Shown one piece after another: positions 31,520 to 48,140 of a stretch of DNA of 64,000 nt. The notes under the pieces are model-generated. The model saw nothing but the letters and a program-made list of their open reading frames with translations. It made no database searches and had not been told where the DNA came from. Origin of the DNA: Macrostomum lignano (taxonomy: Eukaryota); NCBI GenBank assembly GCA_002269645.1, contig NIVC01001200.1, positions 186,001-250,000 on the forward strand, written 5' to 3'. Both the position numbers and the translations under genes were made by a program. Numbering within the stretch: position 1 is the stretch's first letter; each line of letters opens with the position of its first letter.

Positions 31520-33952
31520 CAGTCTAACGTAAGGCTTCACCAGATTCGTCTAATCTAGTAATAGATTTAGCTTGTAAGCACTGGAATTTTGCTGACATCG
31601 AAGCGAAAAAAAACAACGGCCTCCTCTCGCTATCCAGCCAGACCAGCTCTACACTAAAGGACAGATAACAAAAGCTGAAGTTCGAAGGCCAAGCCAGCAG
31701 ATTGCGAACGCGTGACACAGTGGACTCGCAGCAATTCTTGGGGGTGATATGGTTGCCTAACAAAAGGACAGAGAAAAATGCTCGAGCGATAACCCTGCCC
31801 CACTCAAACTATGCATTGCTCTTCATTTTGTCAACTAAACCAGTTTGTTTGCTTGACTATAAAATACACTGTCTTGAATAATTTTCGGCAGAGAGAGAGA
31901 TTCGGAGATGTGAGCCTCACACTCATAACAGGGCCCTTAGAGGCCAGTGTGTTAGAAAGTCTTTCTGGCTTGTGGGCAGAAGATAACAGAAAAATCTGGT
32001 AGCTACATAACAGTAGCTACCAGTGGCTCATCTTTCTCGCCAAATTGATGACGGCCTGAGATGAAGCCGAGTTCTGCAGCGTCTGGGTCCTGGGATATCT
32101 TTACATTTGGCCTTGACATAAATTTCGCTCATCGGTGCTATAGATATCTTCTTGATTACTTCCAGTAGGGACGCAACGCGTTTTATCACTCGATGTTGCA
32201 AGCGAAATTCTTCGGTCACTGAATTCTAAGGATTTTCCCGCAATATCTAATTTAATTTTAACGTTAGTAATCCTTCAGCAACATAGAATGGGTGCGTGAT
32301 CTCGCAGTCCCAAATCTGACGCGCAAGCGCAATGCCACTTGGCCTAATAGGTTTGAAATCTGGCCATTTGCGGATCGCATATTTACAGAGCATGGCTTCA
32401 GACTAGGTTTTCTGGATAGAGGTGCTGATATAATTTATTTTCAATAAGACAATTCGAGGCGCCGGTGTCAACTAAAATCTTTTCGCTTAATCCGTTGATC
32501 TGGCTGTCGAGAAATAATCCGGAATTCACTACTTGACTTGATATTTCTGCTTCTATGCTCTTCTCTGACTCTTGCTTCTCTGTTGCTTTCTTAGCTGCCA
32601 CATCTCGCTGGATGGCTGTCTCTAACTTTCTTAATTCCTGCTTCATTTCCCTAAGTTCAGTTCCAAGTTCAGTTCTTGTTGCACTCTTGTCTGGCTCTTC
32701 TTTCGCTGACTCCGCTTGGACTTTCCCAACCAACCATTGGCGCAAGTCCTGCAATGCGTTTTTAAGATCTGATGGCTCTCTTGCTACTTTTGATTCGTCT
32801 GTCGAAGCGTTCTTTCCTTCGACTTCACTAAGTCTCAAGTCTATGCTGCTCAACGCACATCTCTGGGCTACCGCAGCTTCGCTTCGCTTCTCTAATTCTT
32901 CTGTCGATGGCTCTGACTGTCTAGCTAAGTTCGCTGACTTCTGTCTATCGATTTCTGATAATCTTCGTTCCTCTCTTGAGCAATTTTGACACCGACTGCT
33001 CTCTGCTTCCTACTATGAGTAGTATCGTTGGCGCGGATAAATTTTACTGTTACTCTCTGGCGCAGGAAGTTCATAATTTTGTAGTCGTTTGAAATATCAG
33101 TGTTAGTTGCATGAAAGAAAATACATGTATCTCTATTTTTGCTATCTCGTAGGAATCCGTAGCCTCTATAATAATTATACCAGACTAAATTACCATATTC
33201 TACATTCCCTGATCTGACTTGCTGGTCCTCTACTGCTGCAGCTCTTCTATTGGGAGCGAATCGATTCAGTGGTTGGGGGCGGTTGACCCTCCCTTGGTGC
33301 CGCCCCGTTGGTAGTTTAAAGAGTTCCGTCTAGCTGGGCAGTCTCTGGCCAGGTGCCTTTCGTCGGATTCCCAGGGGATTCCCAGCGATCGGAGATTTTA
33401 AAGCCATTAATTACTATTTGCCTATCGCCGGTCGGTGAGTCCTACCAAGATTTCTCCACCAGTCGCAGGTACGGTACAAGTAAATGAATAACACGGTTGA
33501 ACACACTTCCAGATAGATTTAGATTGAGTGATAAGATAATCCTATTCTGATAGAACGGCTGATGCTTATAATAGGTTTGACTCGTGTACTCACGATTAAC
33601 TTGAAATTCACATATCTAAACAATAAGATTCGCAGATTAGCACCTGATAAATAATAGTAATATAATTAACGCAAATCGATGAGCGGATCTCAGCGCTGGA
33701 AGAAGTGAAACGATGAAACCAGAACACGAGACTAGCGGAGAAGCTCCCTACACACCTGGCCTAACCCCAAGGTCCTACTCTCAGAAGAGGACACTGACGG
33801 CCACTGACAGAGGACACTGACAGTTCAGCGAATCCCTGGTCAAATCCTACCACTTTTGCATTTCAGTGAAACACTGCATGGGGCCCTCGGAATCGAGGTC
33901 GCGTACTGTGTCAAATCGACAGCTCCTGTCCAGACCGCGCTTGCCGGCGACA
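31520..33952 (-). mobile_element. Decayed Ty3/Gypsy-like LTR element (LTR, PBS, coiled-coil gag, protease, RT remnant)
   Basis: ILVDTGASNCLI aspartic protease after a coiled-coil. PBS TGGTGGAGAA (33461-33452) resembles the complement of a tRNA-Ala 3' end. TATA-like CTATATAAG in the candidate LTR (about 33462-33952). No 3' LTR found. Confidence 0.65.
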
Positions 33953-34422
33953 AACTCTGAACGAGGTCGTCGCAAATGTTACGCCGGCAAGGCTACTGCG
34001 GTCGGGCAACGCAATAAAATATCGGCCGGGGTCTCGACTCGATAGGCGCCTCAAAGCGCGGCAGATGGCAAAACGGCCGGGAGATGAGAACAAAACCAGA
34101 ACAAAAAGGAGAAGTGGGATCTGACCGCGCCGTCATATATTGTCTCATATATATGATGATCATATACTCGAGTCTCTCCAAACCCCAATCAAGCCGGGTG
34201 GTGGGTGTCTGGCTGGCCGGTCAGTAATCCCAATTGCTGACCCAATCCCAATCCCAATTTGTTAATTTGTATGGTTTAACGTCTGTATCTAAATAAGTCT
34301 CATTGATGGTGATGAGATCGGGGGGAAAACTATTAAAGTCCAGAGCTTCAAGACTGAGTATTATATCAATAGTTTGATGTACACCACATGCTTATCATGA
34401 ATTTTGTATAAGTGTTCCCTTT

Positions 34423-34812
34423 TTGGAACGATGGACCTGTTGACTAACTAGAAGTCTCGGTGGAACCTCGCCTGTTTGCCATCGTCAGTAGTCGCAGCCA
34501 CACGCCATCCTCTCACACCGCTCTCAGTGTGCAAAAGCGTTTCCTTTATGGCGAATCTTTATTCGACCCTGTGAGAGATTTTACGATTCAAATCTTTATT
34601 CGTCTACTTTTCTCAGTCAGTAGTAGAAATTAAATCTTTCACAGGACCTATACTTGTTTGCAGCGACTTGGACCGCTTCCTGAGGACTTTTACTCTTTTA
34701 GTCTGCTAGATTAATAATCCAGCCCAGGGCTTCATCCCTGAAGATGAAAAATGGCATCTATTTTCCAGCTAAATAACACAGCTCCCAAATGCCCGGATAG
34801 GTATTTTATGGT
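34423..34812 (+). repeat. Dispersed repeat of about 400 bp, copy 2, abutting the DIRS-like element
   Basis: See copy 1 at 24522-24922. Confidence 0.85.
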
Positions 34813-35078
34813 TGCGATTTCAGGGGCCGGTTTTAACCGGCTCTGTAATCGTGTTTAGCCGACGGGGCCGCCCCCTCCGCCCGTCTGTGCGTGCGGCCCG
34901 CGCGTGTGCATCCCTGCCGCAAGGTGGGGTGCTGGGTGCCGGCCGGCAGGCGGGGGTGTTGGGTTGGGGGTGGGCGGCGTCGGCCCCCTTTTATTTGTGC
35001 GCTCACGCTCTCTCGTGCGCGCTGCGAGAGCGCTTTGGCTCGTAAAATTTTTTTTGCGACTATCTGGCTCTGGCTATC

Positions 35079-36095
35079 ATGCATCGTGTGGACCGACTAA
35101 CAGTCAAACAACTCAAGAGTGAGCTGGGTAGCCGAGGCCTCTCAACCGCAGGCAATAAGTCGGCCTTGCAAGCCAGACTGAGACAACACGAGGGGCAGTC
35201 ACAGCTTCAAGACGGCGGGACATCGGCATTGACATCGGCATCGACATCGCCCTGTGCGCAGGAGGAGCTCCAAGACCAAGGCCGGGACCCACGGGAGGCG
35301 GACCTGGACGGCGAGATTCGGCGGGCGCAGAAACGGCTGCAGCTCCTAGAGCTTCAAACACGCGAGCGAGAGCTTCGGGAACGCGCCGTCGTGACTGCTC
35401 GTACAGAATCAGGTGAGCAGCAGAATCTTTTCGCTGAACTTATCAACCCAACAGGCCCCGTCAGCGCTAGAGCCAACCCCCGGCCGGTCGGGCAGCCGTG
35501 TCTACTCGTCAGAGACTTTGTCGATGATCTGTCAGGCCAGGCTGACGAGCTGCTCACCAGGGGCAGCTCTGGCGGCCTCGTGCTCAAGAAGTCGACGACC
35601 AAGCTGGACGGCATGACAATTGGGCAGTGGTTCGCCGGCAGTATGAAGGTCCTGCTTCAGATACTTGAAGACACAGCGCCGCAGGTGACCAGCAAGGGCC
35701 AAGTGTACAGCACAACTGAGCAAGTCAAAGATTACGCCCAGTACAATGTCCAGGTGGCCGAGCTATTCGACAGATTCCCAGCGCACCGGGTGATCAGATT
35801 CGACCATGACTACCGCCAGCACCGCGCAGCTAACAGCCTTCGCTGGGGCAAAGACTGCGCCCAGATGTCGATCAGGCACCTGCTCAGCATTAAGACGGAC
35901 CAGTACAACCAGACAGCCAAGCGAAACCAGCCTAGCAACAAGAGCCGCGTCATGGGTCCGCGGACATCCTCAGGCCGCGAGCTGTGCTTGTCCTTCAACA
36001 GCACCAACGGCTGCATGAGGAGCAACTGCCGATTCCTCCATGCCTGCCGAATCTGTGAGGGCAGCCACTCCGAGCAAAATCACGCAAAAAACTGA
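35079..36095 (+). CDS. gag: DIRS/Ngaro-type gag (N-terminal SAP domain, C-terminal CCCH/CCHx zinc finger)
   Basis: LTVKQLKSELGSRGLSTAGNKSALQARL (SAP) and ELCLSFNSTNGCMRSNCRFLHACRICEGSH; directly upstream of a DIRS-type RT. Confidence 0.85.
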   Translation: MHRVDRLTVKQLKSELGSRGLSTAGNKSALQARLRQHEGQSQLQDGGTSALTSASTSPCAQEELQDQGRDPREADLDGEIRRAQKRLQLLELQTRERELRERAVVTARTESGEQQNLFAELINPTGPVSARANPRPVGQPCLLVRDFVDDLSGQADELLTRGSSGGLVLKKSTTKLDGMTIGQWFAGSMKVLLQILEDTAPQVTSKGQVYSTTEQVKDYAQYNVQVAELFDRFPAHRVIRFDHDYRQHRAANSLRWGKDCAQMSIRHLLSIKTDQYNQTAKRNQPSNKSRVMGPRTSSGRELCLSFNSTNGCMRSNCRFLHACRICEGSHSEQNHAKN

Positions 36096-39000
36096 GCAAG
36101 CGCGCCGACACGGCGCGCGAAACCGATTTTACCCCTCCTGCTTTTAACTGCCTCGCTCAGCCCGCTCCCGTGCCCTGCATCGTCAAGCCTCCAGTGCGGA
36201 TGTCCGATCTGACGCAGCCAGTGGGCGATCTCTGCATCGACGCCTGGCGCTCCGAGCTTGTGGGCGACCCCGACGCTGATTTTATTCTCGACGGCATCGA
36301 GAGCGGCTTCTCCATTGTCGATGACTTCGACTTTACGCCGTGTCTCTGCAGCAACTACCAGTCCGTCAACCGGAATCGCGACCAAGTCCAAGCTGTTATC
36401 GGAGAAGAAATCCGGCTCGGTAGGTACGTCCCAGTCGTGGACAAGCCTGCGATGGTCTGTCCGCTGGGAGCCATTCCGAAAGACAGCTCCGGCATCCGGC
36501 TAATCCATGATTGCTCCGTCCCTCGCGGCTGCAGCCTGAACGATCACTATGCCCAACAACGGCGTCTCCGCTTCACCTCCGTCGACGAGGCCGTCAGGAT
36601 GATGCAGCCCGGCTGGTTTATGGCAAAGGTGGACATCGCGTCAGCCTACCGCAGCGTGCCAATTTCTCCGCAGTGCTACCAAGCCACCGGCACCCACTGG
36701 GACTTCGGCAACGGCTGCTCAACCTTCCTGGTGGATACGCGGTTACCATTCGGCAGCAGAGCCTCCGTCAGCATTTTCCATCGCCTCACGCAAGCGGCCC
36801 GGCGAATGATGTGTCGCAAGGGGTTCCTGGCAACCGTCGTTTTCATCGATGACTTCCTCGTCATGGCCAGGACGAAAGCCGAGTGTGACAGGGCCTACCA
36901 CGAGCTGCGCAACCTGCTCACCCGGCTTGGCTTCACCATCAACAAGAAAAACGACCTCAAGGAGTGCGCCGCCCCGCTGGTTGCGATTCTGCAGCACCAA
37001 GAAGCCTTCAGCGGCTGCTCGGTTTCAGTCTACACTGACAGCACCGCCGCCTGCGGCATCATTAACTCGGGTTCCGCCAAGCACCAAGGTATTGCCGACC
37101 TGCAGAAGCGCGTCGACCTGACCTGCATTCAACGCGACATCATCGTCCGCGCGCACCATGTGCCTGGCCGCTTCCAGCTGCTCGCAGACCCGCTGTCCAG
37201 AGCGCATGACCCCAGCCAGCTTGCCAACTTTCTGTTTCGCTTCTATGGCACCTGCTATGTGCCAACCAGCTTGCTTGCCTCCGCTTGCTTAAGCTCTGCC
37301 GCTGCCTCCCACCTTCTGTTTCAGGCCCGCCTCCTGTGGTCCCGGTTCCCGGCCAAGCAGGAGCACTATCCATTGCCGAGGATCGAGGACCTGTTCGCAC
37401 GGCTGGGCGGCGGCTACAAGTGGAGCAAGCTCGACCTGGCCAAGGCGTTTATGCAGCTGCCGATCTCCGAGGATAGCAAGCAGTTCCTCGTCGTCAACAC
37501 CCAGCGAGGACTGTTTCAAGTCAACCGCTTGCCCTTCGGCATCTGCTCAGCCAGCGCCATCTTCCAGCGCGTGCTCGACACCCTGGCGGGGCACCTCGAC
37601 GGTGTTCAAGTCTACCAGGATGACATCTTGGTGACGGGCTCTACATTGGCTGCGCACAAGGCCAACCTGATGCAAGTGCTGCACAAGCTGCAAGAGGCCG
37701 GTCTGCACATCAACGTGACCAAGTGCGCCTTCTTCAGAGATTCGATCGACTACCTGGGTCACCGGATCGACCGTCACGGTTTGCGGCCACTCGCTGACAA
37801 GATCGAGGCCGTGCAGCGTGCGCCGGCGCCGACCGATGTGAGTCAGGTGCGCTCCTACCTGGGCATGCTGACTCACTATGCAAAGTTCCTGCCCAACTTG
37901 GCGTCGGTTGCAGCACCTCTCAACCACCTGCTTACCAAGGGCGCAACTTGGAAGTGGGGCGATCCCGAGGACCAGGCCTTCCGTGCTTCAAAGCAGCTGT
38001 TGCTGGACTCTGGTGCCCTGATGCACTTCAACCCGGACTTGCCTCTTCGGCTGGAGTGCGACGCGTCAGCATACGGCATTGGCGTCGTGCTCAGCCACCG
38101 CGTGAACGGCCAAGACCAAGCGATCGCGTTCGCCAGCAAGTCTCTGACCTCAGCCCAGCGCAATTACTCCCAGCTGGACAAGGAGGCGCTGGCAATCATC
38201 TACGGCGTGCAGCGCTTTCACCAATTTCTTTACGGTCACCACTTCACCATCGTGACGAATCATCGGCCGCTCCTCGGACTGCTGGGCCCGGACAAGGAAA
38301 TCCCGACGCACGCTGCTGCCAGAATGCAGAGGTGGGCCATCCGACTATCGGGCTACCAGTACTCCATGGAGTTCCGGCCGGCCGAGAAGCACGGAAACTG
38401 CGATTCCCTCTCCCGCCTGCCGCTCAAGGGCAACTTCGTCGAAGAAGCCGCGGTGCACTCGCTCACTCTAGAGGACGATTCGAGCGTCGCAGTGACTGCT
38501 GCTGCCATTGCCAAGGCAACTCAAGCCGACACGGCACTGTCAAAGCTGCTGTGGGCCCTGCGGTCGGGACAGGAGCTGCCAGCTAACGACTTCCCGGACT
38601 TCGCCCATCGTCAAGCAGAGCTTTCAGTCGAAGCCGGTTGTGTGCTGATGGGATCTCGCGTCGTTATCCCGGACACCCTGCGCCAGTCGGTGCTGCGGGA
38701 GCTGCATCTGGCACATCCCGGTGCGAGCCGAATGAAGGCCCTCGCACGGAGCTTCGTCTGGTGGCCTGGGCTAGACAAGGAACTAGAGCAGCTCGGGAGA
38801 GAGTGCGACACCTGCAGAGCTCATCAGGCAGACCCAGCAAAGGCTCCAGTGCATCCCTGGCTGTTCCCCAACGAACCATGGAGCCGCCTACATGTCGACT
38901 TCGCCGGCCCAGTCAACGGTCGAATGTACATAGTCATTGTCGACGCCTACAGCAAATGGCCCGAAGTTCGCCTCATCAGCGACACGTCTGCTGGCGGGAC

Positions 39001-39598
39001 CATCGGGCATCTCCGTGACGTATTCTGCAACTTGGGCCTGCCAAGGATTCTCGTCTCCGACAACGGCCCCAGTTCGCCTCTCATGCGTAGCAACGGGATC
39101 CCGCACGTGACTTCAGCGCCCTACCACCCGGCTACCAACGGACAGTGTGCAGGTAATTTCAAGATGGAGTTTTTCGACATTAAACATATTTTTGATCGAT
39201 TTAAAAAGATATTTTCTTTTTGGAAGAGAAAGCTAGACGCATCAAAGTCCAAGTTCTTCACGGAATTCGATGCGTTCGCGGACAAGTTCTTCAAGAACTT
39301 TTATGCGTGCGCGGAGAAGTTTTTCGAGTCCCACGAGTCCCACGAGAAAATTTCGAAGATGAAGCTCAACAGGAATATTTTTGATATGCTGACCAGTAAG
39401 AAAATGTACGACATCAATCCTTTCCAAACTGCCAATAAAAGCAGCAGAAATATCGACTCTGGCTTTCAAGATAAAAAATCAGCCACAGAGATTCAAAATA
39501 ACGAATTTGAGTTTACCCAAAAAACAAACGCCATCGAAAAAAGACATCGGAGAGCAAATGTGATGAATCAACGAAGTTCTAAACGGAATCTTGGGTGA
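36059..39598 (+). mobile_element. pol: Chimeric pol ORF: DIRS/Ngaro RT + partial RNase H, fused to Gypsy RT-RNase H-integrase (truncated) and an unrelated tail
   Basis: DIRS part: PLGAIPK..RLIHDCS, AKVDIASAYR, LPFG, FIDD, YTDS, HHVPG...ADPLSR. Gypsy part: YPLPRIEDLF, DLAKAF, LPFG, YQDD, CDASAYG, NYSQLDKE, H..H..C..C, DFAGP, SDNG, YHPATNG. Frame open from 36059 with no stop. Confidence 0.9.
36086..36118 (+). promoter_or_regulatory. Candidate -1 programmed ribosomal frameshift signal
   Basis: A_AAA_AAC in gag phase, 7-nt spacer, then hairpin GCGCGCCG-ACA-CGGCGCGC; pol lies in the -1 frame. Confidence 0.75.
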
Positions 39599-39757
39599 TG
39601 AGCAATCTCGAAGTGCTAGTGCGAGTTTATCTGACCAGTGATCGCCTTTGTTTGCTGAAATTTGCTGACAAATTTTCCTACATGCACACAAAGCTCTTAA
39701 AGCATGTCCTACCTTGTTTTTAACAAACTTTTCTGGCACCTCTGTTTGAAGATTATG

Positions 39758-40385
39758 GCACCTCTTAGTGTACGGGATGACAGTGTGCAGACTCTGGCAC
39801 CTCTTAGTGTACGGGATGACAGTGTGCAGACTCTGGCACCTCTTAGTGTACGGGATGACAGTGTGTAGACTCTGGCACCTCTTAGTGTACGGGATGACAG
39901 TGTGTAGACTCTGGCACCTCTTAGTGTACGGGATGACAGTGTGCAGACTCTGGCACCTCTTAGTGTACGGGATGACAGTGTGCAGACTCTGGCACCTCTT
40001 AGTGTACGGGATGACAGTGTGTAGACTCTGGCACCTCTTAGTGTACGGGATGACAGTGTGTAGACTCTGGCACCTCTTAGTGTACGGGATGACAGTGTGT
40101 AGACTCTGGCACCTCTTAGTGTACGGGATGACAGTGTGTAGACTCTGGCACCTCTTAGTGTACGGGATGACAGTGTGCAGACTCTGGCACCTCTTAGTGT
40201 ACGGGATGACAGTGTGTAGACTCTGGCACCTCTTAGTGTACGGGATGACAGTGTGTAGACTCTGGCACCTCTTAGTGTACGGGATGACAGTGTGCAGACT
40301 CTGGCACCTCTTAGTGTACGGGATGACAGTGTGTAGACTCTGGCACCTCTTAGTGTACGGGATGACAGTGTGCAGACTCTGGCAC
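39758..40385. repeat. 39-bp tandem repeat, about 16 copies
   Basis: Unit CTGGCACCTCTTAGTGTACGGGATGACAGTGTG(C/T)AGACT. Confidence 0.95.
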
Positions 40386-41107
40386 ATAGGCGCAGTCTGC
40401 AGACACTTCTAACTCTTGATGAGACGTGCGAGCTCCAAGCGGAATGAGAAATACCTTTTAGAAACTTTCATTTTGATAGGCTTCCCTTGAGACCAAAACA
40501 ACCTTTGAGCTCAAAATCTGTTTTTGAATCTATTTGTCAGTATGGAGATCCCTCTAGTCACAGCTAAAAAATTCAAATATTCAATGTAGACAGAAGTTTC
40601 CATTGCGAGCGAATTTTCGAAACAAACGCGAAGCAAGCGTTTAAACAATTTGTCTTTTTGACGCTTTAGCACTTGACTAAACGTTGGTTTCGACTTGTCG
40701 TTCTTCCAAACCTGTGTTTTGCGTACTTTCGTACGTTCGTACTCAGTGCGAAATCTAATATTTACGCATAGGTAAAGTAATTAATAAAAGTATTTAAACT
40801 ACGCCAGCACCGTACTAACGTTTATTCTATTGTTCTGAATATTTCTTCTAATCGAATTATTAAAAACCCAGTAAAGTACAGTTTCACCTTTACAGTAAGG
40901 CTGAGAACCGAATTTGAAAATAAAAAGGAAGTCTTACTATTTTTGAGGCCGCTGGTCTGGCCCAGTAGATGAGACAAGTCGCCTCCGTTATTCAATATCG
41001 GGCTCAATTCAATTAGCTTATTCAATATCGAGGAGAGCACCTCCAGTCCAGAGCAACGACACATAAGCAGTAGCAGTGACTCTCTTAAAATGGATGCTGT
41101 CTGTCTT

Positions 41108-41532
<425 letters not shown>

Positions 41533-42356
41533 GGTAAGCGGCTGAAGGTGAAAGTTCTGTTGGCAAACTGGAAAAGTCTAACAATGCCAAGCTGCGTACA
41601 AATAAATGCATCCGAAACTCTCAAATAACAGCAGAATGAACGTGTCAGAATACGAAGACAAGATTTTTTCTACTTGAAATATTGTTGAATGAACCCAAGA
41701 GTTCTTGACGGCTTGTGCCTAAGCTATTGTGGGTCAAGTGGTGGATATTTTCTGTTCTGACTGGGAAGATTAACTGCGAGTCAAAGGGCACTCGGACCAA
41801 ACTTTCCCCAATTAGCATTGTAATTGTAATTTATCGTACTGAATTCAGAATTTTAACTTTTTCAGTTCCTAAGCCCGGTTGACACTACTGCTAGTAGCTC
41901 CAAGTGTCCAAAATGCTTAAATCAAGATTAAAATGGGCCAAAACCCGCTGTACATTGACCTAGGCGTTCGTGTGTCGAGAAGCCTTGGATCGGTGAACTG
42001 ACTGCTCAAAAGCTTATCAGTGAAACGCTTATTTCTAAACTGAGATTTCAATGCTCGTTGGAGTTTAAGTAAGTTTGCATGCTTGCATGTAGTTTCTAAG
42101 AAATCAATGTTCGAATGCACTGAATATTTTCTGAGATTCGAAGCTCAGAAGGGCCAGATGTTGAATGTCAAAAGGCTAGGTCAAAGGTCAAATGACATAA
42201 CGAATAATATTGGAACGTACAATAGAGTTTAACCTGCAAAAGACCAGACACTGGAGTTACCCGAATGTCACACGCCTAATTCCCTGCGTTGAGCAGTGAC
42301 GGCAGGGTTTTGCAAACCTTAGCCTGGTTTTGACTTCATGCTGGAGCAAGTGCTGT

Positions 42357-42957
42357 TCATCGGTCTAGCATTCTAATTGTACATCAGAACAGAATCGGTT
42401 TATCGGTCTAGCATTCTAATTGTACATCAGAACAGAATCGGTTTATCGGTCTAGCATTCTAATTGTACATCAGAACAGAATCGGTTTATCGGTCTAGCAT
42501 TCTAATTGTACATCAGAACAGAATCGGTTTATCGGTCTAGCATTCTAATTGTACATCAGAACAGAATCGGTTTATCGGTCTAGCATTCTAATTGTACATC
42601 AGAACAGAATCGGTTTATCGGTCTAGCATTCTAATTGTACATCAGAACAGAATCGGTTTATCGGTCTAGCATTCTAATTGTACATCAGAACAGAATCGGT
42701 TTATCGGTCTAGCATTCTAATTGTACATCAGAACAGAATCGGTTTATCGGTCTAGCATTCTAATTGTACATCAGAACAGAATCGGTTTATCGGTCTAGCA
42801 TTCTAATTGTACATCAGAACAGAATCGGTTTATCGGTCTAGCATTCTAATTGTACATCAGAACAGAATCGGTTTATCGGTCTAGCATTCTAATTGTACAT
42901 CAGAACAGAATCGGTTCATAGGTCTATCATTCTAATTGTACATCAGAACAGGGTCGG
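42357..42957. repeat. 43-bp tandem repeat, about 14 near-identical copies
   Basis: Unit TTATCGGTCTAGCATTCTAATTGTACATCAGAACAGAATCGGT. Confidence 0.95.
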
Positions 42958-43147
42958 TTAATTGTCCTCCTTGGTCTTTGCAACCCTGTCATGTGCTTTC
43001 AAGCAGCGTGCTTGTAGCCAGTCATCAACTTATAATGAGAATCGTTTCAGATTAATACTCATACCGGTAAAACTGCCCAGTGAATAAAAAGTAACTAAGC
43101 AATCAATACCTCAAAAACTCAGCTATATGCTAGGATTGCTCAAGTTT

Positions 43148-46389: not shown

Positions 46390-46714
46390 GGGGATCAGGG
46401 AGAGGAAAATTCTTGCTATAAAATCCCAAAATGCCGCGCAGAATATATTGCCCACCTTCACCGGGGACCCCAGAGCGGCTTCGAGGTCTCAGATTTCACA
46501 CTGGCTTAGCCGGAGACGAGCTGACAGCTGGAAGATCCGGGCCTCATTGAGTCTGACCGCACTGTCAGAGCTCCCGTGGCTCAGTTTAAATCCTTGCTGG
46601 CCTTTGAAGAATGCAGAGGATCTCATTTCACGAGTATTTTATGTAGATCGTGGGGTCATTTTTACTATGAAATATAATGCGTAGATAAAAATCTACATTT
46701 CTCAATAGTTTCAA

Positions 46715-48140
46715 GCTAGATTAGCAATCCAATTATATTCCTGCATAATCCATGTAGGCTAGATTAGCAATCCATTCTATTCCTGCATGCAGGCCAGATT
46801 AGCAATCCATTCTGTTCCTGCATCATCCATGCAGGCTAGATTAGCAATCCATTCTGTTCCTGCATCATCCATGCAGGCTAGATTAGCAATCCATTCTGTT
46901 CCTGCATCATCCATGCAGGCCAGATTAGCAATCCATTATATTCCTGCATCATCCATGCAGGCCAGATTAGCAATCCATTCTGTTCCTGCATCATCCATGC
47001 AGGCTAGATTAGCAATCCATTCTATTCCTGCATCATCCATGCAGGCTGGATTAGCAATCCATTCTGTTCCTGCATCATCCATGCAGGCTAGATTAGCAAT
47101 CCATTCTGTTCCTGCATTATCCATGCAGGCCAGATTAGCAATCCATTATATTCCTGCATCATCCATGCAGGCCAGATTAGCAATCCATTCTGTTCCTGCA
47201 TTATCCATGCAGGCTAGATTAGCAATCCATTCTATTCCTGCATCATCCATGCAGGCTAGATTAGCAATCCATTCTGTTCCTGCATCATCCATGCAGGCCA
47301 GATTAGCAATCCATTCTATTCCTGCATCATCCATGCAGGCTAGATTAGCAATCCATTCTGTTCCTGCATCATCCATGCAGGCTAGATTAGCAATCCATTC
47401 TGTTCCTGCATCATCCATGCAGGCTAGATTAGCAATCCATTCTGTTGCTGCATCATCCATGCAGGCTAGATTAGCAATCCATTCTGTTGCTGCATCATCC
47501 ATGCAGGCTAGATTAGCAATCCATTCTGTTCCTGCATCATCCATGCAGGCTAGATTAGCAATCCATTCTGTTCCTGCATCATCCATGCAGGCTAGATTAG
47601 CAATCCATTCTGTTCCTGCATCATCCATGCAGGCTAGATTAGCAATCCATTCTGTTCCTGCATCATCCATGCAGGCTAGATTAGCAATCCATTCTGTTCC
47701 TGCATTATCCATGCAGGCCAGATTAGCAATCCATTCTGTTCCTGCATGCAGGCTAGATTAGCAATCCATTCTGTTTCTGCATTATCCATGCAGGCTAGAT
47801 TAGCAATCCATTCTGTTCCTGCATTATCCATGCAGGCTAGATTAGCAATCCATTCTGTTCCTGCATCATCCATGCAGGCTGGATTAGCAATCCATTCTGT
47901 TCCTGCATTATCCATGCAGGCTAGATTAGCAATCCATTCTATTCCTGCATCATCCATGCAGGCTAGATTAGCAATCCATTCTATTCCTGCATCATCCATG
48001 CCGGCTAGATTAGCAATCCATTCTGTTCCTGCATTATCCATGCAGGCTAGATTAGCAATCCATTCTATTCCTGCATCATCCATGCAGGCTAGATTAGCAA
48101 TCCATTCTATTCCTGCATGCAGGCTAGATTAGCAATCCAA
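46715..48140. repeat. 42-bp tandem repeat, about 34 copies
   Basis: Unit CAGGCTAGATTAGCAATCCATTCTGTTCCTGCATCATCCATG. Confidence 0.95.

Follow-up and report, generated by a model that had tools for sequence, protein, structure and literature searches.

Gag–pol junction of the window element

The window analyzed here, a 64,000-nucleotide (nt) stretch of the Macrostomum lignano genome (contig NIVC01001200.1, positions 186,001 to 250,000), contains a damaged copy of a retrotransposon related to the Ngaro elements, which are tyrosine-recombinase (YR) retrotransposons of the order DIRS (PMC3783388, PMC9210276, PMC6681497; these and all other papers are cited for the excerpts of their text available to us). 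Its gag and pol open reading frames (ORFs) overlap. The features of the junction, numbered from the first letter of the window, are the following:

35079..36095, + strand, gag ORF, 338 amino acids (aa)
35985..36083, + strand, C-terminal Cys/His zinc knuckle of Gag (CCCH, then a CCHH-like part), matching that of relatives
36059..37350, + strand, Ngaro-type pol frame (reverse transcriptase, RT, and an RNase H remnant), -1 relative to gag
36086..36092, + strand, slippery heptamer A_AAA_AAC in the X_XXY_YYZ phase of gag, with the UGA stop directly 3'
36093..36099, + strand, gag UGA stop and 7-nt spacer
36100..36118, + strand, hairpin with a perfect 8-bp stem (36100-36107 / 36111-36118), all G+C, and a 3-nt loop
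36200..36202, + strand, first ATG of the pol frame (rival start)

Open from 36059, the pol frame shares 37 nt with gag. An earlier, sequence-only reading of the window had described the heptamer with its phase, the 7-nt spacer and the 8-bp GC hairpin, as well as a -1 pol frame open from 36059; our analysis confirms all of these, the coordinates of the signal exactly. Its statement that pol has no ATG until well downstream was overstated, as the ATG at 36200 lies ahead of the conserved pol domain.

Both canonical features of a -1 site are found in the window, namely, an in-phase X_XXY_YYZ heptamer in a -1 overlap and a stable structure 5-9 nt downstream. The 33-nt piece comprising the signal folds at -16.7 kcal/mol (z -3.62), none of 200 shuffled sequences being as stable; longer folding windows around it yield z of -2.07, -0.73, and -2.76. 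Taken together, the two strands of the window contain 484 slippery-like heptamers; when these are ranked by a stem 5-9 nt downstream, the one at the junction comes first, and the second place goes to the identical hairpin on the opposite strand. The fold and the rank of this signal are more than expected by chance. Judging from these features and from the comparison with relatives, the site is very probably a programmed -1 ribosomal frameshift signal responsible for synthesis of Gag-Pol.

Relatives of the element

The RT of the window (36200-36946), used as a query, matched 363 proteins at E <=0.001, most of those listed being 500-600 aa long, and 5915 cluster representatives. The search alignment, consisting of the window RT and 19 matched proteins, yielded 80 metagenome loci (the best 80 of 159), and 10 further loci came from prokaryote bins, giving 91 loci in total, that is, 90 relatives and the window. 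A protein search with Gag produced no match among 1943 candidates, all Atlas matches for Gag were below 0.9, and the viral contigs searched contained no relatives. A Cys/His knuckle homologous to that of the window is present at the end of Gag in 77 of the 91 loci (window included), and it served as the anchor for the junction search; Pfam zf-CCCH matches were obtained on the Gag proteins of L017 and L042.

A third ORF follows pol in the 40 loci where pol is complete and sufficient 3' sequence is available. In all 35 scored cases it fits one profile with the tyrosine-recombinase pattern R...HSxRRGG...Y, and four of eight tested ORF3 proteins have Pfam phage-integrase matches, mostly below the cut-off. 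The pol ORFs of the relatives end approximately 500-600 residues after the first motif, and the four scanned match only RVT_1 and RNase H, with no methyltransferase. Locus L024 has split direct repeats in the arrangement A1...B1-A2-B2, with the 236-nt A at 1/4460 and the 104-nt B at 4245/4792, both 100% identical; such repeats are clear in one of 11 loci scanned, most contigs ending short. By these features, the set L001-L087 has the Ngaro architecture, with gag, RT/RNase H without a methyltransferase, YR, and, in L024, split direct repeats.

The window copy is different in having no tyrosine recombinase ORF, as it passes into a gypsy-type pol at 37351, while other copies continue for at least 1013 nt. 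No long direct repeat was detected in 33500-39700, though read depth and loose contig ends suggest that 34810-35055 recurs elsewhere. Since the recombinase ORF is absent, we file the copy as a truncated Ngaro-like derivative, placed by RT kinship, and not as a complete member. A DIRS1-like identity was considered and rejected: there is no methyltransferase match, and no inverted repeat of at least 25 nt occurs in 33500-39700 or in L024.

Two observations concern the origin of particular relatives. Loci L081-L090, which come from bacterial genome bins, have a eukaryote-type RT, and the scored recombinase loci among them (L084-L086) carry spliceosomal-type signals; these loci are probably host-animal DNA within the bins. 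An amphioxus gene model named sodium channel (P0031) holds a Gag knuckle of the Ngaro family joined to RT and is likely a mis-annotation across a recoding junction.

Junction classes and their motifs

Junction classes were assigned from the reading frame alone, prior to motif scoring. At the 77 loci with a knuckle, pol lies in the -1 frame in 24 cases, in the +1 frame in seven, and in the same frame behind one stop codon in 39; one locus is fused, and six are damaged. The motif counts below refer to the 70 intact junctions, the 14 loci without a detected knuckle, the six damaged loci, and the fused one being omitted.

An in-phase strict heptamer in the overlap is found in 23 of the 24 -1 loci (20 A_AAA_AAC, two C_CCA_AAA, and one A_AAA_AAU) and in one of the 46 loci of other classes. 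When loci are merged at 80% RT identity, the respective numbers are 22 of 23 and one of 43 (Fisher p 3e-15, a value that ignores kinship and overstates certainty). Conservation among relatives had been suggested as a check in the sequence-only reading; the heptamer is kept in 22 of the 23 -1 loci other than the window, whose RT identity to the window is about 35-53%. As for the background, 18,974 gag-body codons contain 42 strict heptamers, none of them A_AAA_AAC. Lys-Asn pairs are spelled A_AAA_AAC in 20 of 24 cases in the tails of the -1 class and in one of 77 cases in gag and pol bodies. Because the spelling differs between tails and bodies, retention of A_AAA_AAC reflects codon choice and not a protein motif.

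The same counts bear on polymerase slippage, which on the six-A run present at the site would add a base to some transcripts and bring pol in frame. Slippage on such A runs is a property of some viral polymerases. It needs no codon phase, yet 23 of the 24 sites stand in the phase required for tandem slippage; moreover, two loci have C_CCA_AAA, and the final C is retained in 20. We regard this explanation as very unlikely.

In the +1 class, CGU_UUU_CGU occurs in six of seven loci, compared to none of the 63 others. In the same-frame class, the stop codon is UGA in 23 loci and UAG in 16, and never UAA, with the contexts UGA-C (19 loci) and UAG-G (12 loci) accounting for 31 of 39; as a control, 11 of the 31 gags in the -1 and +1 classes end in UAA, as do 16 of 47 pol ORFs. 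These +1 (UUU_CGU) and in-frame UGA/UAG signals at the gag–pol junction of relatives were missed by the sequence-only reading. A recoded genetic code behind the in-frame stops was rejected because the stop is single and confined to one position, and the long ORFs flanking it contain no others.

The stops and frame offsets could also be seen as decay of a former single gag-pol ORF, given that L050 reads as one ORF and six of the 77 junctions are damaged. However, the break always lies just behind the zinc knuckle, the flanking ORFs are open, UAA is absent from the same-frame cases, and the motif matches the frame. L050 itself, whose gag-pol is uninterrupted and whose junction is shorter, closely resembles L048, which has a UAG-G junction and falls into the same 90% RT cluster; a recent loss of the stop in L050 is possible. 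The match between motif and frame largely refutes decay, and we give it hardly any credence.

Outside the counted set, L041, a locus without a detected knuckle, has A_AAA_AAC in a -1 overlap, and A_AAA_AAC is retained in two of three damaged -1 junctions.

Switching between classes

Retroviral genera usually keep one recoding device each. In a maximum-likelihood tree obtained by a quick search from 68 RT/RNase H proteins, with three short proteins omitted, the junction classes of the Ngaro relatives interleave, so that 13 class changes are needed; branches with support of at least 95 force at least four changes for the -1 class and at least five for readthrough. A single -1 clade is rejected by the approximately unbiased (AU) test under a simpler model (p-AU 1e-74), and the +1 class may have a single origin. 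The nearest row to the window is L002, a -1 locus with A_AAA_AAC, with support of only 85. We infer that the gag–pol junction switched its device several times, and -1 frameshifting is likely one of three routes to Gag-Pol in this set of sequences.

Observations at odds with recoding

A number of observations weigh against the above interpretation, and we consider them together. The first concerns RNA structure. Conservation of the hairpin was sought in four ways, one further alignment being poor at its 5' end. The hairpin of the window (z -3.07) is the strongest among 22 -1 representatives. With composition accounted for, the 45 nt downstream in these representatives are folded no more stably than control windows, the mean z being -0.27, compared to 0.06 in the controls (p 0.35), z below -1.5 being observed in five of 22 representatives and seven of 88 controls. 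Local-structure scores (p 0.045) and crude pseudoknot scores (p 0.028) differ from those of controls weakly and prior to any correction, and neither distinguishes the -1 class from the readthrough class (p 0.28 and 0.13, respectively). In two sub-clade alignments, covariation is seen in one of 10 and one of six pairs only. Conservation and covariation of the stem, which the sequence-only reading had proposed as a check, were found neither by folding nor by structure scores nor in sub-clade alignments. Folding revealed no conserved 3' structure for the same-frame class either. The hairpin of the window is predicted to be a stimulator specific to its own lineage, and in members lacking it the heptamer alone, the adjacent stop codon, or other structures may serve as the device. 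In three of the loci L083-L086, a possible H-type pseudoknot occurs at comparable distances from the heptamer, within the region 9-60 nt downstream of it, with covariation too weak to assess it.

The second concerns the start of pol. Pol might be made separately from the ATG at 36200, whether by re-initiation after gag, from an internal promoter, or with a trans-spliced leader; the heptamer and the hairpin would then be incidental. Only 105 nt separate the gag stop from this ATG, which precedes the first conserved pol motif by 11 codons; among 66 representatives, the first in-frame ATG of pol is upstream of the conserved domain in 18, and such an ATG is present in seven of the 23 -1 representatives. 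The gag-UGA-pol junction of Candida Tca2 did not direct readthrough in a reporter and contains a cryptic promoter (PMC2194720), showing that motif-based recoding calls can fail. On the other hand, in 40 of the 66 representatives the first ATG is more than 37 residues into the domain (in the other eight it is within the first 37), and therefore pol usually lacks a start of its own; in addition, a separate start leaves unexplained why the heptamer, UUU_CGU, and leaky-type stops track the frame class. Separate initiation thus appears improbable, though less so than the other alternatives considered here.

The remaining points concern exceptions and statistics. Among the intact -1 loci, only L072 lacks a strict heptamer; its gag end, near 1911, has a seven-A run in another phase, and its tree neighbor is a UGA-C element. 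L067 is the single +1 locus without UUU_CG; it groups with elements of the same-frame class, of which it is probably a damaged member. ORF bodies do not avoid A_AAA_AAC to a significant degree (p 0.08 for both gag and pol). Finally, deep branches of the tree are weak, and it comes from a quick search only.

Recombinase and predicted splicing

For Ngaro elements, the one mechanism encountered in the literature is a frameshift between the RT/RNase H ORF and YR, proposed by Poulter and Butler in 2015, as quoted in PMC13003380; in the present data, recoding signals are located at the gag–pol junction, and a predicted splice acceptor at YR. The frame relation between RT/RNase H and YR varies among 40 loci (-1 in 19, +1 in 17, and the same frame in four), and no strict heptamer was found in the last 200 nt of this overlap in any of the 40. 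Frameshifting into the recombinase was rejected on these grounds.

Splice sites were scored with approximate matrices. Near the YR start, the best acceptor falls in phase 1 at 34 of 35 loci, for the most part with one offset, and the best gag donor is in phase 1 in 18 of 21 full-length gags of relatives, mostly 186-214 codons before the end of the knuckle. The corresponding predicted sites of the window are:

35410..35418, + strand, predicted phase-1 donor in gag, cut 35412|35413, the best in the window gag (6.4 bits)
37305..37325, + strand, predicted acceptor, cut 37324|37325, the best in 35079-37360 (7.5 bits), located where the recombinase ORF of relatives starts

The recombinase thus appears to be reached by splicing and not by frameshifting, as far as these predicted sites indicate, a point that the sequence-only reading had missed. 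Gag-Pol, in turn, could arise from splicing of a gag donor to an acceptor near 36160, where a pyrimidine-rich stretch ends in AG at 36159-36160. But this acceptor (cut 36160|36161), at 1.7 bits, is weaker than that of the recombinase (7.5 bits), and its phase does not fit the single strong gag donor, 35412|35413; acceptors at the pol start are not conserved among relatives either, with three of 66 reaching at least 6 bits, a median of -1.1 bits, and scattered phases, in a search window shorter than that for the recombinase. Splicing as the source of Gag-Pol is therefore extremely unlikely.

Proposed expression strategy

With frameshifting as the favored mechanism, most ribosomes would terminate at the gag UGA and produce Gag, and a minority, pausing at the hairpin, would slip one base back on A_AAA_AAC and produce a Gag-RT-RNase H fusion. 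In relatives, a +1 slip or stop readthrough at the homologous junction would yield the same type of product. In retroviruses, the Gag-Pol fusion ensures that the enzyme enters the particle in a fixed proportion, and by analogy it may do so here. A separate, spliced RNA would join the front of gag to the recombinase ORF, giving a Gag-front/YR product. It seems that the clade conserves the Gag-Pol fusion at a low fixed ratio and not one particular device.

On balance, though with considerably less confidence than for the frameshift site itself, we favor a scheme in which one Ngaro clade makes Gag, a recoded Gag-Pol, and a spliced Gag-front/recombinase product from one RNA, the junction having repeatedly flipped between -1, +1, and readthrough, mostly without a conserved RNA structure; this scheme would overturn the printed suggestion of a recombinase frameshift. 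Of the sequence-only reading as a whole, -1 frameshifting to Gag-Pol in an Ngaro-type element is supported, and conservation of the hairpin, the distant ATG, and a role for a Gag-linked chimera (see below) are not.

Organization and damage of the window copy

Other copies of the element were viewed through read contigs from four of the 24 listed sequencing runs, over 34300-39700. Of these 24, 20 contain at least half of the words sought, and none is recorded as RNA. Beyond the junction, the copy includes:

34810..35055, + strand, likely 5' terminal (A-type) repeat, with depth 2-3x that of the internal part; limits approximate
37351..39145, + strand, Ty3/gypsy-type pol fragment, joined in frame: N-terminally truncated RT, RNase H, zinc-binding domain, broken integrase core
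39146..39598, + strand, flanking DNA of single-copy depth that continues the open frame by chance

The repeat is also present in another context, since a contig matching 34810-35054 has a different sequence in front and there are loose ends behind 35055. Gag carries a SAP domain at residues 5-38 (Pfam PF02037, E 1.6e-12). The depth of the element is about 5x that of its flanks in the three deeper runs. The frameshift site is spanned by contigs of all four runs, with no differences in 35910-36402 among the rows listed.

The pol frame is less intact. In three of the four runs, 491 letters are present between 36951 and 36954, the window pol being short by a net 163 codons; the alignment with L086 pol has a gap at 253-416, matching the missing stretch in size. 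At the gypsy join, contigs from the Ngaro side stop or diverge from the window at 37348-37354, one continuing for 1013 nt, and those from the gypsy side extend in front of 37351 with different sequence (281, 865, and 1224 nt). No contig bridging the inner joins, 36951/36954 and 37350/37351, was seen among the pieces listed, where contigs drop rare variants; the join at 39145 is bridged in runs X3 and X13.

The gypsy-type fragment matches the Pfam families RVT_1 (profile positions 35-205), RT_RNaseH, and Integrase_H2C2, with rve below the cut-off. The order RT, RNase H, integrase is that of Ty3/gypsy elements; no long terminal repeat (LTR), gag, or protease of this type is present in the window copy. 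The integrase core is broken, with short indels relative to other copies near 39066-39080, and is cut off at 39145. The region 39146-39598 has no Pfam match, and its 149-aa tail no Atlas match; it is A+T-rich, open for about 150 codons, and contains a 33-nt internal repeat.

The 1179-codon frame with two RTs is two elements joined in one copy, either in the genome or by assembly. A designed dual-RT protein was rejected, as other copies carry the missing RT/RNase H stretch and diverge at the gypsy join. Frameshifting would attach Gag to this chimera, as the sequence-only reading had noted, but the chimera is a deletion-joined copy and not the family design; in itself it is ordinary damage. Because the copy is damaged by the deletion and by replacement of the recombinase with the gypsy-type fragment, the frameshift signal is a property of the parent family rather than of the chimera.

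The DNA depth of the gypsy-type part (37351-39145) is close to that of the Ngaro part, about 5x single copy, which may be a coincidence or shared amplification. Just upstream of the element, a short repeat at 34570-34617 has very high depth and many different flanks. Large tandem arrays are located at 9015-13400, 39700-40400, 42350-43000, and 46700-48100, with periods of 8, 39, 43, and 42 nt, respectively.

Comparison with known systems

The relatives share with published Ngaro elements gag, RT/RNase H without a methyltransferase, and YR, as well as split repeats (in L024) and the YR pattern in ORF3. A mechanism for passing from gag to pol is not given in the available excerpts of PMC3783388, PMC9210276, and PMC6681497, and a search of full-text literature, with the founding Ngaro paper, the 2015 review, supplements, and Repbase lying outside it, found no description of gag-pol recoding in DIRS-order elements; excerpts of PMC8547959, PMC3266345, PMC13003380, bioRxiv 2022.06.16.496473, PMC7192593, PMC4157794, and PMC12440569 contained none either. 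The excerpts of PMC5009743, a paper on which several comparisons below draw, do not mention DIRS or Ngaro. Priority for gag-pol recoding in Ngaro elements is uncertain.

For mammalian ribosomes, A_AAA_AAC ranks with the most shift-prone heptamers (PMC5009743). Gag-pol junctions of retroviruses and animal Ty3/gypsy elements have the same X_XXY_YYZ heptamer, 5-9-nt spacer, 3' stem, and -1 pol (PMC5009743), whereas the elements studied here are of the recombinase type, lack a conserved 3' structure, and often have the gag stop immediately after the heptamer. The +1 site of influenza A PA-X, UCC_UUU_CGU (PMC5009743), shares with six of the seven +1 loci a UUU_CGU closing the first ORF and a next ORF in +1; however, the preceding codon is CGU in the Ngaro loci, and the host is a retrotransposon. 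A single literature search for UUU_CGU in retrotransposons gave only a virus review.

UGA-CUA/CGG and UAG-G are type II and type III readthrough contexts, respectively (PMC3542737). Gammaretroviral UAG-G, type II UGA-CUA/CGG (PMC3542737), and Tca2 (PMC2194720) resemble the 31 same-frame loci with one in-frame UAG-G or UGA-C; in contrast to these systems, no conserved 3' structure was found here, and both stop types occur within one Ngaro clade. Two-ORF Penelope-like elements likewise have an ORF1-RT frameshift in a retroelement outside the LTR group (PMC8557442), though they form an unrelated class, and a pseudoknot is drawn there, none being conserved here.

Implications

The -1 mechanism is of a known kind in a new setting. 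The surprising parts are the exchange of three devices at one junction and UUU_CGU in a retrotransposon; such a +1 site would extend a motif known mainly from viruses. The homologous junctions provide exact short cassettes for testing all three products, and, as they differ in mechanism, their efficiencies, need for a stimulator, and routes of switching are directly comparable. Intact Ngaro elements would look broken to annotation pipelines. More generally, the findings bear on how tyrosine-recombinase retrotransposons express enzyme genes that lack a start, and, if true, offer a natural series in which each of the three main recoding devices can replace the others at a single homologous position.

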